A stretch of 4,439 nt of DNA from a virus (IMGVR_UViG_2778261462_000001); one strand, 5' to 3'. Numbered from the stretch's first letter, positions 1 to 4,439 are shown. The notes: generated by a model from the letters alone, not told the origin. Program-made: numbers and translations.

Positions 1-127
1 GTTTAATTATATCGAATGTGATTACAATCGGTGGCGGCGGCACAGTTGGTGTGGCGGCCTCAGTCCGGAACAATTTGAAAACAAGAACCTCGCTTAGGCC
101 TGTGTCCATATTACGTGGGTAGGATCA
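1..127 (+). mobile_element. IS3-family insertion sequence, 3' (right) end; the element continues upstream of the window
   Basis: The sequence ends at 127 with ...GGCCTGTGTCCATATTACGTGGGTAGGATCA, i.e. the 5'-TG...CA-3' terminus typical of IS3-family elements. From memory this matches the right terminal inverted repeat of E. coli IS3. The preceding frame encodes a transposase-like C-terminus. The boundary at 127/128 is set by where that recalled repeat ends. Confidence 0.7.
2..97 (+). CDS. IS3-family transposase OrfB (InsF-like), C-terminal fragment; 5' part lies outside the window
   Basis: Frame 2 is open from the window edge to TAG at 95-97 and encodes ...[28 protein letters not shown]. The YN-x-RRHS...LSPEQF pattern is the conserved C-terminal tail of IS3-family DDE (rve) transposases. 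It is absent from the supplied ORF track only because it has no in-window start. Confidence 0.6.
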
Positions 128-176: not shown

Positions 177-365
177 ATGAAAACGTTATTACCAAACGTT
201 AATACGTCTGAAGGTTGTTTTGAAATTGGTGTCACTATCAGTAACCCAGTATTTACTGAAGATGCCATTAACAAGAGAAAACAAGAACGGGAGCTATTAA
301 ATAAAATATGCATTGTTTCAATGCTGGCTCGTTTACGTCTGATGCCAAAAGGATGTGCACAATGA
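177..365 (+). CDS. hypothetical small protein (62 aa), first gene of a two-gene small-ORF pair
   Basis: ATG at 177 is preceded by GAGGA (165-169) at 7 nt spacing. Its TGA stop (363-365) overlaps the ATG (362-364) of the next ORF as ATGA, a classic translational-coupling arrangement. I recognise no family for the product. Confidence 0.4.
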   Translation: MKTLLPNVNTSEGCFEIGVTISNPVFTEDAINKRKQERELLNKICIVSMLARLRLMPKGCAQ

Positions 366-553
366 ATTCAGCATTTGTGCTTGTTCTGACAGTTTTTCTT
401 GTTTCCGGAGAGCCAGTTGATATTGCAGTCAGTGTTTACAGGACAATGCAGGAGTGTATGACTGCAGCAACCGAACAGAAAATTCCCGGTAACTGTTACC
501 CGGTCGATAAAGTTATTCACCAGGATAATATCGAAATCCCGGCAGGTCTTTAA
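362..553 (+). CDS. hypothetical small protein (63 aa) with a hydrophobic N-terminal segment (signal-peptide or membrane-anchor-like)
   Basis: ATG at 362 is preceded by AAGGA (347-351). The product MNSAFVLVLTVFLVSGEPVD... opens with an uncharged hydrophobic stretch of about 14 residues followed by a polar region with two Cys. The ORF track extends the frame upstream to ATG 308 (81 aa), but 362 has the better ribosome-binding site and the ATGA overlap. Confidence 0.5.
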   Translation: MNSAFVLVLTVFLVSGEPVDIAVSVYRTMQECMTAATEQKIPGNCYPVDKVIHQDNIEIPAGL

Positions 554-645
554 AACAGTTCCGTAATAAATATCCGGTTTCATTCTTATATGCCAGCAAT
601 GGCAGGGATTTGTTCATCCTTAAATCTGTCATGAGGTTAAAACAA

Positions 646-3117
646 ATGAGTAAAGTCTTTATTTGCGCCGCTATTCCTGACGAACTGGCAACAAGGGAAG
701 AAGGCGCTGTGGCTGTAGCCACAGCCATTGAAGCTGGCGACGAACGCCGTGCTCGAGCAAAATTTCACTGGCAATTCCTGGAACATTATCCGGCTGCTCA
801 GGACTGCGCTTATAAATTTATTGTCTGCGAGGATAAACCTGGCATACCCCGCCCTGCCCTCGATTCATGGGATGCTGAATATATGCAGGAAAACCGCTGG
901 GATGAGGAGTCTGCTTCTTTTGTCCCGGTTGAGACTGAATCCGATCCGATGAACGTCACTTTTGACAAGCTGGCCCCTGAAGTACAGAACGCTGTCATGG
1001 TTAAGTTCGACACATGTGAAAACATCACCGTTGATATGGTTATTAGCGCACAGGAATTGTTGCAGGAAGACATGGCAACATTCGACGGACATATCGTTGA
1101 AGCGTTGATGAAAATGCCAGAAGTTAACGCCATGTATCCGGAGCTTAAGTTGCACGCCATTGGGTGGGTTAAGCATAAATGTATTCCTGGTGCTAAATGG
1201 CCCGAAATTCAGGCAGAGATGCGCATCTGGAAAAAACGTCGCGAAGGTGAACGCAAGGAAACCGGAAAATACACGTCTGTTGTTGATCTCGCCCGCGCCA
1301 GAGCCAATCAACAGTACACTGAAAATTCAACAGGAAAAATCAGCCCGGTCATTGCTGCCATTCATCGCGAATACAAGCAGACATGGAAAACACTGGATGA
1401 CGAACTGGCCTACGCTCTCTGGCCTAGTGATGTGGATGCCGGAAACATTGACGGCAGCATCCATCGCTGGGCAAAAAAAGAAGTTATCGACAACGACCGC
1501 GAAGACTGGAAGCGTATCTCGGCATCAATGCGCAAACAGCCTGATGCCCTTCGCTACGACCGCCAAACTATTTTTGGCCTTGTCCGTGAGCGTCCGATCG
1601 ACATTCACAAAGATCCCGTAGCACTGAACAAATATATCTGCGAATACCTGACGACAAAGGGCGTGTTTGAGAATGAAGAAACAGACCTGGGCACTGTTGA
1701 TGTTCTCCAGTCATCAGAAACACAAACTGATGCAGTGGAAACTGAGGTATCTGATATCCCAAAAAATGAAACCGCGCCGGAAGCTGAACCATCTGTAGAG
1801 CGTGAGGGGCCGTTCTATTTCCTCTTCGCAGATAAGGACGGAGAAAAATACGGTCGCGCAAACAAACTCTCTGGTCTGGATAAGGCACTGGCTGCTGGCG
1901 CCACTGAAATCACAAAAGAAGAATATTTTGCCCGAAAGAATGGCACATACACGGGCTTACCGCAAAATGTAGATACCGCTGAAGATTCAGAACAACCAGA
2001 GCCGATAAAAGTTACCGCTGACGAAGTAAACAAAATTATGCAGGCAGCCAATATCAGCCAGCCTGACGCCGATAAGTTGCTTGCTGCATCACGTGGTGAA
2101 TTTGTTGAAGGGATTAGTGACCCGAATGATCCGAAATGGGTTAAGGGGCTCCAGACCCGCGATTCTGTGAACCAGAACCAGCATGAATCGGAACGGAACT
2201 ACCAAAAAGCGGAACAAAACAGTCCAAATGCGTTACAAAACGAGCCAGAAACGAAACAGCCTGAACCAGTAGCGCAACAGGAAGTGGAAAAAGTCTGCAC
2301 CGCCTGCGGTCAGACCGGCGGCGGCAACTGCCCTGATTGTGGCGCGGTGATGGGCGACGCAACATACCAAGAAACATTCGATGAAGAGTATCAGGTTGAA
2401 GTTCAGGAAGATGATCCGGAGGAAATGGAAGGCGCTGAACATCCACACAAGGAGAACACTGGCGGCAATCAGCATCACAATAGCGATAATGAAACTGGCG
2501 AGACGGCAGATCACCCAATTAAGGTGAACGGTCATCACGAAATCACATCCACCAGCAGGACGTGTGACCATCTAATGATCGACCTTGAAACCATGGGAAA
2601 AAATCCTGATGCCCCGATCATCTCAATAGGTGCAATATTTTTCGATCCGCAAACCGGAGATATGGGACCGGAATTTAGTAAGACTATCGATCTGGAAACT
2701 GCTGGCGGAGTCATTGATCGGGACACCATTAAATGGTGGCTTAAGCAATCACGCGAAGCGCAATCTGCCATTATGACCGATGAAATCCCGTTAGATGATG
2801 CACTGTTACAATTGCGAGAATTTATCGACGAAAACTCCGGTGAATTTTTTGTTCAGGTTTGGGGAAATGGAGCCAACTTCGACAACACGATTTTGCGCCG
2901 TTCATACGAACGGCAGGGGATCCCCTGCCCGTGGCGTTACTACAACGATCGCGATGTACGCACAATCGTTGAGCTGGGGAAAGCCATAGACTTCGATGCC
3001 AGAACGGCTATTCCATTCGAAGGTGAGCGCCATAATGCACTTGATGACGCCCGTTACCAGGCAAAATACGTTTCAGTTATCTGGCAAAAACTGATCCCGA
3101 GTCAGGCTGATTCTTAA
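646..3117 (+). CDS. large prophage-encoded modular protein with C-terminal DEDDh (DnaQ-like) 3'-5' exonuclease domain; N-terminal domain of unknown function; putative prophage exonuclease
   Basis: Single long ORF (track: 610-3117 with a TTG start). I prefer ATG 646 (MSKVF...), which has GAGG at 633-636 about 9 nt upstream; ATG 631 is an alternative. The C-terminal region carries the three DEDDh motifs: Exo I D-L-E in MIDLETMG (D 2581-2583, E 2587-2589), Exo II in WGNGANFDNTIL (D 2881-2883), Exo III H-x4-D in HNALDDARYQ (H 3031-3033, D 3046-3048). Its position immediately upstream of xis-int matches the exo slot of lambdoid pL operons. Confidence 0.85.
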   Translation: MSKVFICAAIPDELATREEGAVAVATAIEAGDERRARAKFHWQFLEHYPAAQDCAYKFIVCEDKPGIPRPALDSWDAEYMQENRWDEESASFVPVETESDPMNVTFDKLAPEVQNAVMVKFDTCENITVDMVISAQELLQEDMATFDGHIVEALMKMPEVNAMYPELKLHAIGWVKHKCIPGAKWPEIQAEMRIWKKRREGERKETGKYTSVVDLARARANQQYTENSTGKISPVIAAIHREYKQTWKTLDDELAYALWPSDVDAGNIDGSIHRWAKKEVIDNDREDWKRISASMRKQPDALRYDRQTIFGLVRERPIDIHKDPVALNKYICEYLTTKGVFENEETDLGTVDVLQSSETQTDAVETEVSDIPKNETAPEAEPSVEREGPFYFLFADKDGEKYGRANKLSGLDKALAAGATEITKEEYFARKNGTYTGLPQNVDTAEDSEQPEPIKVTADEVNKIMQAANISQPDADKLLAASRGEFVEGISDPNDPKWVKGLQTRDSVNQNQHESERNYQKAEQNSPNALQNEPETKQPEPVAQQEVEKVCTACGQTGGGNCPDCGAVMGDATYQETFDEEYQVEVQEDDPEEMEGAEHPHKENTGGNQHHNSDNETGETADHPIKVNGHHEITSTSRTCDHLMIDLETMGKNPDAPIISIGAIFFDPQTGDMGPEFSKTIDLETAGGVIDRDTIKWWLKQSREAQSAIMTDEIPLDDALLQLREFIDENSGEFFVQVWGNGANFDNTILRRSYERQGIPCPWRYYNDRDVRTIVELGKAIDFDARTAIPFEGERHNALDDARYQAKYVSVIWQKLIPSQADS

Positions 3118-3128
3118 TGTTCAACTGT

Positions 3129-3160
3129 CGCCGGTTGTGACTGGTATTCTGCAACCGGCG
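3129..3160. other. perfect 9-bp inverted repeat (hairpin) in the exo-xis intergenic region; possible terminator/attenuator or protein-binding site
   Basis: CGCCGGTTG (3129-3137) and CAACCGGCG (3152-3160) are exact reverse complements separated by a 14-nt loop, 12 nt after the exo stop codon. No U-tract follows on the + strand, so it is not a canonical intrinsic terminator. Confidence 0.4.
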
Positions 3161-3189: not shown

Positions 3190-3441
3190 ATGAGCGAAGT
3201 AATCATGATTGTCTCTCCCGGCAAATGGGTATCCGAAGAGCAGTTAATTGCGCTGAAAGGAATAAAAAAAGGTACGTTAAAAAAGGCCCGGGAAAAATCG
3301 TTTATGGAAGGAAGGGAATATAAGCATGTCGCTCATGACGGTATGCCATGGGATAACAGTCCATGCTTTTACAACCTGGAAGAAATTGATCGCTGGATTG
3401 AGCGCCAGGCATCAGCGAGACCAAGACGTCATCTTACTTGA
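3190..3441 (+). CDS. excisionase-like small DNA-binding protein (putative Xis / recombination directionality factor)
   Basis: 83 aa basic ORF immediately upstream of, and co-oriented with, the integrase gene (19-nt gap), which is the canonical xis position. The call rests mainly on size, position and composition, not on a recognised motif. An alternative start is ATG 3205. Confidence 0.55.
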   Translation: MSEVIMIVSPGKWVSEEQLIALKGIKKGTLKKAREKSFMEGREYKHVAHDGMPWDNSPCFYNLEEIDRWIERQASARPRRHLT

Positions 3442-3460: not shown

Positions 3461-4312
3461 ATGAGAGAAGTTGAAATGAAATATCCGACAGGCGTGGAAA
3501 ACCATGGAGGGAAATTACGTATCTGGTTTGTTTATAAAGACGTAAGAGTCAGGGAAAATCTGGGGGTTCCTGACACAGCAAAAAACAGGCGCGTTGCAGG
3601 TGAACTACGCTCCTCTGTTTGTTACGCAATAAAAACTGGTGTTTTCGACTATGCAAAACAGTTTCCCTCCTCACGCAATCTGGAAAAATTTGGTGAGGCC
3701 CGACAAGATTTAACCATAAAAGAACTGGCTGAAAAATTTCTGGCACTGAAAGAAACTGAAGTCGCCAAAACATCACTCAACACATACCGTGCCGTCATCA
3801 AAAATATCCTGAGCATAATCGGTGAAAAAAATCTTGCCTCATCGATTAATAAAGAAAAATTACTGGAGGTTCGTAAAGAGTTACTGACTGGATACCAGAT
3901 CCCCAAAAGTAACTATATTGTTACACAACCAGGGAGATCGGCTGTAACTGTAAATAATTACATGACAAATCTTAACGCCGTGTTCCAGTTTGGTGTTGAT
4001 AACGGTTACCTGGCAGATAATCCGTTTAAGGGGATCTCGCCATTAAAGGAATCAAGAACCATTCCGGATCCTCTTTCGCGGGAAGAATTTATCCGTCTTA
4101 TCGATGCGTGCAGAAATCAGCAAGCAAAAAATTTATGGTGTGTTTCTGTTTATACTGGAGTTCGCCCTGGTGAGCTGTGTGCACTTGGATGGGAGGACAT
4201 AGATCTGAAAAATGGAACAATGATGATCAGGAGAAATTTAGCAAAAGACCGTTTCACGGTACCAAAAACACAGGCGGGAACCAATCGGGTCATTCATCTT
4301 ATTAAGCCAGCA
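3461..4312 (+). pseudogene. phage tyrosine integrase (IntE/IntR-like, with N-terminal arm-binding domain), 3'-truncated by IS1 insertion
   Basis: The N-terminus MKYPTGVENHGGKLRIWFVYKDVRVRENLG matches, from memory, the PTGVE...LRIWF arm-binding motif of e14/Rac-type integrases (more likely start ATG 3476). Catalytic box I is present (TGVRPGEL, then KTQAGTNRVIHL), but the downstream H-x-x-R box and the catalytic Tyr are missing. The reading frame runs into IS1 at 4313, and the ORF-track tail [26 protein letters not shown] is translated IS1 DNA. Confidence 0.85.
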
Positions 4313-4439
4313 GGTAATGACTCCAACTTATTGATAGTGTTTTATGTTCAGATAATGCCCGATGACTTTGTCATGCAGCTCCACCGATTTTGAGAACGAC
4401 AGCGACTTCCGTCCCAGCCGTGCCAGGTGCTGCCTCAGA
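4313..4439 (-). mobile_element. IS1 insertion sequence, terminal 127 bp (insB-proximal end); the element continues beyond the window
   Basis: 4313 onward reads GGTAATGACTCCAACTTATTGATAGTG..., which I recognise as the IS1 terminal inverted repeat, followed by the complement of the insB 3' end. The junction at 4312/4313 lies inside the integrase frame. Confidence 0.9.
4328..4439 (-). CDS. insB: IS1 transposase InsB, C-terminal fragment (3' end of gene; rest outside window)
   Basis: The reverse complement of 4328-4439 translates to ...[36 protein letters not shown] followed by a stop (TAA, complement of 4328-4330). This matches the InsB C-terminus as I remember it. Confidence 0.8.

Follow-up and report, generated by a model that had tools for sequence, protein, structure and literature searches.

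The 4,439-nucleotide (nt) stretch of viral DNA analysed here (IMGVR_UViG_2778261462_000001; hereafter the window) comes from a Qin-type lambdoid prophage of Escherichia coli, of which it represents the int-proximal end, and harbours an intact form of the gene ydfE. Comparative analysis indicates that the ydfE product is a paralogue of RecE (exonuclease VIII of the Rac prophage) in which the nuclease cassette alone appears to have been exchanged, a RecE-type scaffold being followed by a predicted DEDDh 3'-5' exonuclease in place of the PD-(D/E)xK 5'-3' nuclease of RecE. Furthermore, the type of cassette predicts the neighbouring gene, as the presence of RecT was found to track nuclease type perfectly in the sampled loci. 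The pairing of a RecE scaffold with a nuclease of predicted opposite polarity, strictly uncoupled from RecT, is the new element; neither the fusion of a DEDDh domain to a RecE scaffold, nor its reciprocal relationship with RecE, nor the covariation of cassette and RecT was found described in the searchable literature. The gene does not represent a new kind of system, since it is common, already annotated as an exonuclease, covered by Pfam and part of a general phenomenon described in recent literature.

The window contains an intact form of ydfE

The gene consists of a single open reading frame (ORF) that extends from an ATG at position 646 to a stop codon at 3115-3117 and encodes 823 amino acids (aa), in agreement with RefSeq coordinates and with the approximately 824 aa given in a first-pass annotation of the window. 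Residues 1-256 are 100% identical to YdfE of E. coli K-12 (Qin pseudogene b1577), and the window therefore holds the intact form of this gene. The K-12 locus shares these residues as well as the neighbouring genes dicB, ydfD, xis and intQ, but differs in being truncated by IS2E, with the loss of everything past aa 256, including the exonuclease domain. As a consequence, the K-12 annotation gives no hint of a nuclease, and a very common E. coli prophage gene, being a pseudogene in K-12, has escaped study. Of 5,426 complete E. coli genomes, 2,243 (~41%) contain 80% or more of the window, and a protein identical to the ydfE product is encoded by Escherichia phage PhiR42_1, whose genome was deposited as complete. 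Truncated ydfE versions are frequent, and a protein search with aa 1-260 returned, among the matches listed, fragments of at most 453 aa.

The C-terminal region is a predicted DEDDh exonuclease

Residues 642-813 were matched to Pfam family PF16473 (Rv2179c-like) with an E value of 2.4e-67 and 226.5 bits against a cutoff of 27, covering 176 of the 177 profile positions, as had been anticipated for this region in the first-pass annotation; a weaker RNase_T match was obtained in the same C-terminal region. The positions previously given for the Exo I, Exo II and Exo III motifs proved exact, and the five catalytic residues were shown to be invariant in an alignment with T4 DexA, epsilon34 gp34, a homologue from phage 1720a-02 and four divergent fusion proteins, the DEDDh active site thus being complete as judged by alignment. 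The AlphaFold model of aa 640-823 exhibited predicted local distance difference test (pLDDT) scores of 75-92. When the model of aa 346-823 was submitted to Foldseek, the top PDB match was T4 DexA (8KEL; E 5e-9, probability 1.00), which is also the top PDB match by sequence, followed by RNase T, the DnaQ domain of Cas2-DnaQ and Orn/REXO2, with E values of 4e-8 to 3e-6 for RNase T and Orn/REXO2. The C-terminus is best described as a putative DEDDh 3'-5' exonuclease, not a PD-(D/E)xK enzyme, and its fusion to a large non-nuclease region, proposed at the outset, was borne out.

The structure of T4 DexA was reported by Kang et al. (2025) together with the activity of EcD, a DexA homologue of E. coli that degrades 5-hydroxymethylcytosine (5hmC)-containing T4 DNA and protects against T4 ('HREX'; PMC12153337). 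DexA (8KEL/8KEN) and the ydfE domain share the DEDDh family, the fold and the five conserved catalytic residues. Conversely, identity between the two is 27%, the inserted loops of DexA are missing from the ydfE domain, and DexA is a separate protein of 227 aa, with EcD also expressed separately, whereas the ydfE domain forms the C-terminus of an 823-aa protein.

A defence or exclusion nuclease of the HREX type, which would protect a lysogen or an induced cell by selectively degrading the 5hmC-modified DNA of infecting T-even phages, is in our view an unlikely identity for the ydfE product. In its favour, DexA is the closest solved structure by both sequence and fold, and EcD degrades T4 DNA, spares unmodified DNA and blocks T4 (PMC12153337); the EcD start read from its cloning primer (M-I-D-T-E-T) corresponds to the domain start MIDLETMG, and a passage of one report describes the neighbouring gene dicB as blocking infection by some phages (PMC6832061). 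However, the EcD primers do not match ydfE, and EcD is therefore a different homologue. The DexA residues that recognize 5hmC are not conserved either, W152 corresponding to Tyr (RYYNDRD) and D169 to Ala in a poorly aligned loop. Moreover, ydfE belongs to an operon silenced by a repressor, a separate promoter for the gene was not found in the window, PADLOC returned a match to a generic DEDDh model alone (E 1.8e-5), and an HREX-like function would leave a 640-aa RecE-type scaffold under purifying selection unexplained. As a candidate for ydfE itself, EcD (HAK9828821.1) was rejected: its primer-derived ends, ATGATTGACACCGAAAC and ACCATTCCTGAAACATATGA, match nowhere in the window, even with 3 mismatches allowed.

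The possibility that the domain is a 3'-5' exoribonuclease resembling Rv2179c, RNase T or Orn, with RNA, oligonucleotides or signalling nucleotides as substrate (for example, host or defence RNAs or signals), is quite improbable. While the Pfam family takes its name from an exoribonuclease, and RNase T and Orn/REXO2 are close structural matches, the nearest characterized relatives by sequence and fold (DexA and EcD) are DNases, the scaffold is common to a DNA exonuclease, and the genomic context contains no pointer to RNA.

A further relative is encoded by phage epsilon34, gp34 of which belongs to the same Pfam family and is 56% identical to aa 641-816. This 182-aa protein stands alone, whereas the ydfE domain is fused to a RecE-type scaffold and has no recombination-module gene nearby. 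The epsilon34 gene order (Rad52-type annealase, SSB, DnaQ-type gp34 and Abc2) was confirmed. Zheng et al. (2025) described DnaQ-like 3'-5' nucleases within lambdoid recombination modules, such as that of epsilon34, where gp34 is taken as a genuine member, as well as sporadic DnaQ-type genes near int outside recognizable recombination modules (PMC12315714); the position of ydfE corresponds to the latter situation. K-12 exoD, a DLP12 pseudogene that adjoins xisD-intD (L174 2599-2862), was considered as a fragment of the same family and rejected, as BLASTP detected no similarity despite its name and equivalent position.

The remainder of the protein is related to RecE

BLASTP comparison with K-12 RecE aligned aa 262-627 with RecE residues 278-592 (E 2e-61), with an identity of ~82% across aa 465-630, a span that includes a CxxC-x7-CxxC motif. 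The alignment ends at RecE residue 592, where the PD-(D/E)xK nuclease core of RecE begins. Similarly, the RecE equivalog model NF007259 of NCBIfam covers aa 246-623 with an E value of 1.3e-83 (model positions 271-600); at 281.6 bits, however, the match falls far short of the equivalog cutoff of 1269. The Pfam scan revealed no PD-(D/E)xK nuclease domain (PF12684/DUF3799-like) and no PF06630 match in the protein.

Upstream of this alignment, comparison of the N-terminal region with that of RecE by hhalign returned a probability of 97.6% (E 2.7e-12). The comparison was repeated with mosaic sequences removed and with alignments trimmed to single subdomains, upon which the first subdomain (N1) matched RecE aa 1-84 with a probability of 94.1% (E 1.3e-7), while the match of the second (N2; E 2.6e-4) was suggestive only. 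The N-terminal domain is a remote homologue of its RecE counterpart, as judged by profile comparison. Residues 1-627 thus correspond to RecE 1-592, and the nuclease domain alone differs. The first-pass annotation had regarded the gene as a non-orthologous occupant of the position of lambda exo, a view that is not compatible with the direct alignment of aa 262-627 and the remote homology of the N-terminus.

Residues 1-640 produced no match in a scan of the Pfam-A library used, and Pfam scans of every sub-segment at E values up to 10 returned weak zinc-ribbon noise only; the newer families YdfE_N (PF27430) and YdfE_C (PF27432) cover the N-terminal part. The first ~340 residues, previously described as unassignable, are thus now covered by families based on YdfE itself, while the description still holds for function, fold searches with the model of aa 1-345 having yielded no informative match.

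The domain layout obtained from two AlphaFold runs (Table 1) comprises N1, N2, a third helical subdomain, a mini-domain, a partly ordered central block shared with RecE and, finally, the DEDDh domain, with acidic disordered linkers located after the third subdomain and before the DEDDh domain. The third helical subdomain is the first block to align directly with RecE (BLASTP, RecE 278-336; NF007259, from position 271). The central block exhibits 78% nt identity to K-12 recE nt 1365-1765, and its zinc-knuckle-like motif produced weak zinc-ribbon Pfam matches (DZR, E 0.039) and a pLDDT of ~60. Nowhere in the protein is purifying selection stronger than in the mini-domain (GPFYFLFADKDGEKYGRANKLSGLDKALAAGATEITKEEYFARKNG, ~50 residues), which K-12 RecE lacks, which matched no family and which lies between acidic disordered linkers that evolve almost neutrally (aa 346-385, positions 1681-1800, and aa 438-464, positions 1957-2037).

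Among 40 distinct full-length alleles, the ratio of non-synonymous to synonymous polymorphism (pN/pS) was 0.08-0.25 in all folded modules, compared with 0.82-0.88 in the linkers. Since pN/pS is low in every folded module, selection appears to maintain the whole multi-domain protein. The opposite view, namely that ydfE is a non-functional chimera from prophage-prophage recombination whose conservation reflects hitch-hiking in cryptic prophages, can draw on the insertion sequences IS3 and IS1 that bracket the window copy, the loss of its promoter, the pseudogene status of the K-12 copy and the frequency of truncated versions. It is nevertheless contradicted by the contrast in pN/pS between modules and linkers, and the invariant catalytic residues, the identical gene in PhiR42_1 and the occurrence in ~41% of complete E. 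coli genomes also render it extremely unlikely. In P0121, a 50%-identity representative, aa 346-464 are only 70% identical to the window protein, compared with 95-99% in the flanking modules; this linker region is either hypervariable or has been replaced by recombination.

Nuclease cassettes are exchanged and RecT follows the cassette

Long representatives from an exhaustive protein search were sorted by module, and every pairing of the two N-terminal types with the two nuclease types was found. A YdfE-type N-terminus is joined to a DEDDh domain in the window gene and to a PD-(D/E)xK domain in P0129, while a RecE-type N-terminus is joined to PD-(D/E)xK in RecE and to DEDDh in P0126, the N-terminus of which is 100% identical to K-12 RecE and the nuclease 99% identical to that of the window gene. 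DNA comparison placed the crossover inside the shared central block, where the chimera P0126 changes parent.

Two samples of loci were then compared for the presence of RecT. The PD-(D/E)xK sample consisted of the 80 IMG/VR loci nearest to the RecE nuclease domain, 77 of which contain enough downstream sequence; recT was located directly downstream in all 77, and the P0129 locus also carries RecT. The DEDDh sample consisted of the 80 loci nearest to the central block of the window gene, including 77 with the DEDDh domain and 15 with a RecE-type N-terminus, and in none of the 80 did the flanks contain RecT, a Rad52-type annealase, SSB or Abc2. The same four were sought in the flanks of the P0126 locus and not found. 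The RecE/RecT pair and ydfE thus have the scaffold in common, as well as a location late in the lambdoid early-left operon, and differ in nuclease type and in the gene that follows.

These counts also bear on expectations raised in the first-pass annotation. Its question of whether a RecT or Bet gene occurs near homologues has an answer that depends on the cassette, negative throughout the DEDDh sample and positive throughout the other. Its statement that no annealase gene is visible upstream in the window was correct, whereas the premise that xis-int directly follows exo and recE was imprecise, as in Rac recT, ralR and rcbA are located between recE and xis. Given the Rac order recE-recT, an annealase gene would be expected downstream of the nuclease gene, where the window has a gap of 72 nt.

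Two further C-terminal cassettes were observed on the same scaffold. The second commonest cassette, present in 15 of 41 long representatives (P0127, P0132, P0133 and 12 others), contains the invariant motif DGEAxKKSLTDAxKKALSxLGFSADVxLGLYD, at which 9 of 11 members displayed sub-threshold matches to Pfam Rad52_Rad22 (best E 0.003); a PDB profile search with this cassette found nothing, and hhalign comparison with epsilon34-type annealases was not significant, with an E value of 0.32. At two loci (L175 5650-7986 and L176 6001-8226), the P0127-type gene is situated between Gam-like and Sipho_Gp157 genes, with no other annealase nearby. The P0127-type cassette may be a scaffold-fused annealase, perhaps corresponding to the published 'RecE-2' without a nuclease domain. 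The fourth cassette, of ~260 aa (P0124 and P0264), produced no Pfam, PDB-sequence or PADLOC match, and at locus L008 (7001-9109) a P0124-type gene lies between kilR and xis-int without RecT. The 'RecE-2' proteins (PMC12315714) are probably sister architectures, in which the same YdfE_N/YdfE_C scaffold, located before xis-int, carries other cassettes of the P0127 or P0124 type. Unlike the ydfE product, P0127- and P0124-type proteins have no DEDDh domain, and the P0127 type instead exhibits the sub-threshold Rad52-like signature.

Operon context, regulation and Chi content

In K-12, ydfABC-dicF-dicB-ydfDE form a single polycistronic transcript from dicBp that is silenced by the CI-like repressor DicA, and YdfD is the sole characterized product of this dicBF operon besides DicB and DicF (PMC10448788). 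In Qin-type lambdoid phages, ydfE is the last gene before xis-int in this PL-like early-left operon. The interval from cI to int in PhiR42_1, phage 813R8 and the intact prophage of strain 205 contains ydfA/B/C, dicB, ydfD, ydfE and xis only, except that two unnamed ORFs take the place of dicB in PhiR42_1, and no annealase, SSB, Gam or Abc gene is annotated between repressor and int in any of the three. The two PhiR42_1 ORFs (L004 5508-6208) are hypothetical and on the opposite strand, and ydfD and the exonuclease gene are retained; dicB is therefore not an obligatory companion of the exonuclease.

The suggestion that the gene might be a moron or a defence gene received little support. No bracketing promoter or terminator was detected: a consensus scan of the window, which constitutes weak evidence, found no sigma-70-like promoter on the + strand, and the terminator scan found no terminator-like site between the ydfE stop codon and xis, and a weak 5-bp stem at 591-604 upstream of the start. 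Together with membership of the DicA-silenced dicBF transcript, the lack of a promoter-like site argues against an autonomously expressed moron, and the PADLOC result, as described above, was confined to the generic DEDDh model.

The operon context also bears on a role resembling that of T4 DexA in the same family, for which the T4 record annotation and a passage of PMC12153337 list host-DNA scavenging among the described roles. In such a case the ydfE product would supply nucleotides during the lytic phase by digesting host or fragmented DNA from its 3' ends, with no part in recombination. Co-expression with the host-directed toxic functions DicB, DicF and YdfD would suit this role. However, a dependence on host DNA breakdown is not known for temperate lambdoid phages. 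In addition, transactions at DNA ends, as opposed to bulk degradation, are favoured by the homologue in the epsilon34 recombination module, by the attachment to a RecE scaffold and by the reciprocal exchange of nucleases with RecE, and scavenging is an improbable explanation.

A count of Chi sites gave 12 in 24.7 kb (L001 1-24700), with 10 on the same strand, and 6 in 22 kb (L004 1-22000), compared with a chance expectation of ~0.7; one lies inside the exonuclease gene. Lambdoid phages with no Rec module and a high Chi content have been proposed as a class that relies on host RecBCD (Zheng et al. 2025, PMC12315714), and Qin-type phages fit this class.

A possible role at DNA ends

The reading that we favour, and to which we assign roughly even chances, combines a RecE-type scaffold, a DEDDh nuclease and lytic expression in the trimming or blunting of 3' ends. 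Synthesis of the ydfE product would be confined to lytic development, after the prophage switch has flipped. Its scaffold would then bring the nuclease to a RecE-like substrate or partner, either double-stranded DNA ends or recombination or replication intermediates, after which the nuclease would remove nucleotides from 3' ends. As no annealase or other recombination module is present and the phages are Chi-rich, the most likely use would be to trim or blunt ends for host RecBCD-Chi-RecA, or to strip unwanted 3' tails. This would contrast with RecE/RecT, which creates 3' tails for annealing. A link to recombination is supported by the location of the stand-alone homologue gp34 within the epsilon34 recombination module, and a passage of PMC12153337 mentions the participation of T4 DexA in intron homing.

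Several points weigh against this role in end processing. DNA exonucleases of 3'-5' polarity usually inhibit, rather than promote, homologous recombination, and Zheng et al. deliberately exclude near-int DnaQ genes from the members of recombination modules (PMC12315714). The role of the scaffold is unassigned even in RecE (PMC11611040), and since the fold searches with aa 1-345 were uninformative as well, targeting by the scaffold is pure inference. Furthermore, the substrate could be RNA, because Rv2179c, on which the Pfam family was founded, has been described as an exoribonuclease, and the connection with RecBCD and Chi is correlative only.

A broader and tentative proposal, which on balance we consider rather unlikely, is that the RecE-family scaffold, consisting of YdfE_N/RecE_N, the central block and the zinc knuckle, serves as a general delivery platform for interchangeable DNA-end effectors, of which the DEDDh version would provide an annealase-independent 3'-end-processing route to host RecBCD/Chi in Chi-rich lambdoid phages without a recombination module. 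Its effectors may include a PD-(D/E)xK nuclease always accompanied by RecT, a DEDDh nuclease never so accompanied, possibly a fused Rad52-like annealase and at least one further cassette.

For decades, no function has been assigned to the N-terminal two thirds of RecE, although full-length RecE differs from its nuclease domain alone in linear-linear recombineering (PMC11611040). With the same scaffold under selection and its effector swapped between nucleases of predicted opposite polarity, this question becomes a tractable comparison. If either the RecBCD/Chi link or an HREX-like nuclease were true, ydfE would become relevant to prophage recombination, to mosaicism and to competition between phages, and the gene might offer a new part for recombineering tools.

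Other features of the window

The window comprises dicB, ydfD, the 646-3117 ORF, xis and int, in that order, flanked by the ends of two insertion sequences (Table 1).

Table 1. Coordinates of features identified in the 4,439-nt window
Feature	Position	Strand	Evidence
IS3 element end	1..127	.	Identical to IS3 copies of 3,624 genomes; IS3 transposase annotated there
dicB, cell-division inhibitor	177..365	+	Pfam DicB, E 1.9e-40; RefSeq annotation dicB
ydfD, lysis protein (DUF1482)	362..553	+	Pfam DUF1482, E 2.5e-26; RefSeq ydfD coordinates map here
GAGG, Shine-Dalgarno-like site	633..636	+	9 nt before ATG 646; sequence reading
Intact ydfE, 823 aa: RecE-type scaffold and predicted DEDDh exonuclease	646..3117	+	
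N1 alpha/beta subdomain, aa 1-100 (YdfE_N)	646..945	+	pLDDT 85-93; pN/pS 0.09
N2 helical subdomain, aa 108-205	967..1260	+	pLDDT 85-95; pN/pS 0.25
Third helical subdomain, aa 245-340, end of YdfE_C	1378..1665	+	pLDDT 83-92
Mini-domain, aa 386-437	1801..1956	+	pLDDT 93-96; pN/pS 0.075; no Pfam match; missing from K-12 RecE
Central block common to RecE, aa 465-630	2038..2535	+	82% aa identity to P0126; mosaic-exchange crossover zone
CxxC-x7-CxxC zinc-knuckle-like motif (Cys551, Cys554, Cys562, Cys565)	2296..2340	+	Conserved in RecE
Chi site GCTGGTGG	2549..2556	-	Pattern count; inside exonuclease gene
Predicted DEDDh (DnaQ-fold, DexA/Rv2179c-type) 3'-5' exonuclease domain, aa 641-823	2566..3114	+	Pfam PF16473; Foldseek 8KEL
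Exo I: D646, E648	2581..2589	+	Invariant columns
Exo II: D746	2881..2883	+	Invariant column
Exo III (Hx4D): H796, D801	3031..3048	+	Invariant columns
xis, excisionase (DUF1233)	3190..3441	+	Pfam, E 1.6e-31
int, first 284 of 426 codons of tyrosine integrase, IS1-interrupted	3461..4312	+	Pfam Arm-DNA-bind_2 and partial Phage_integrase
IS1 element end	4313..4439	.	Identical to IS1A/IS1B copies of 4,963 genomes

The IS3 end is located ~50 nt 5' of dicB and separates this prophage copy from dicF, ydfABC and the operon promoter dicBp; in K-12, dicF lies ~175 nt upstream of dicB. As the IS3 and IS1 ends bracket it, the window copy is a defective remnant that has lost its connection to dicF and dicBp. 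No Rfam model matched any part of the window. Within the 72 nt that separate the exonuclease stop codon from xis, at ~3131-3160, lies a GC-rich inverted repeat (GCCGGTTG ... CAACCGGC) of 8 bp around a 14-nt loop; it lacks a T-run and was not reported by the terminator scan. At the distal end, matches to other genomes stop at position 4312, and the intact int of strain 205 measures 1281 nt; a 310-aa 'int' ORF in the window represents the truncated integrase running on into IS1 DNA.

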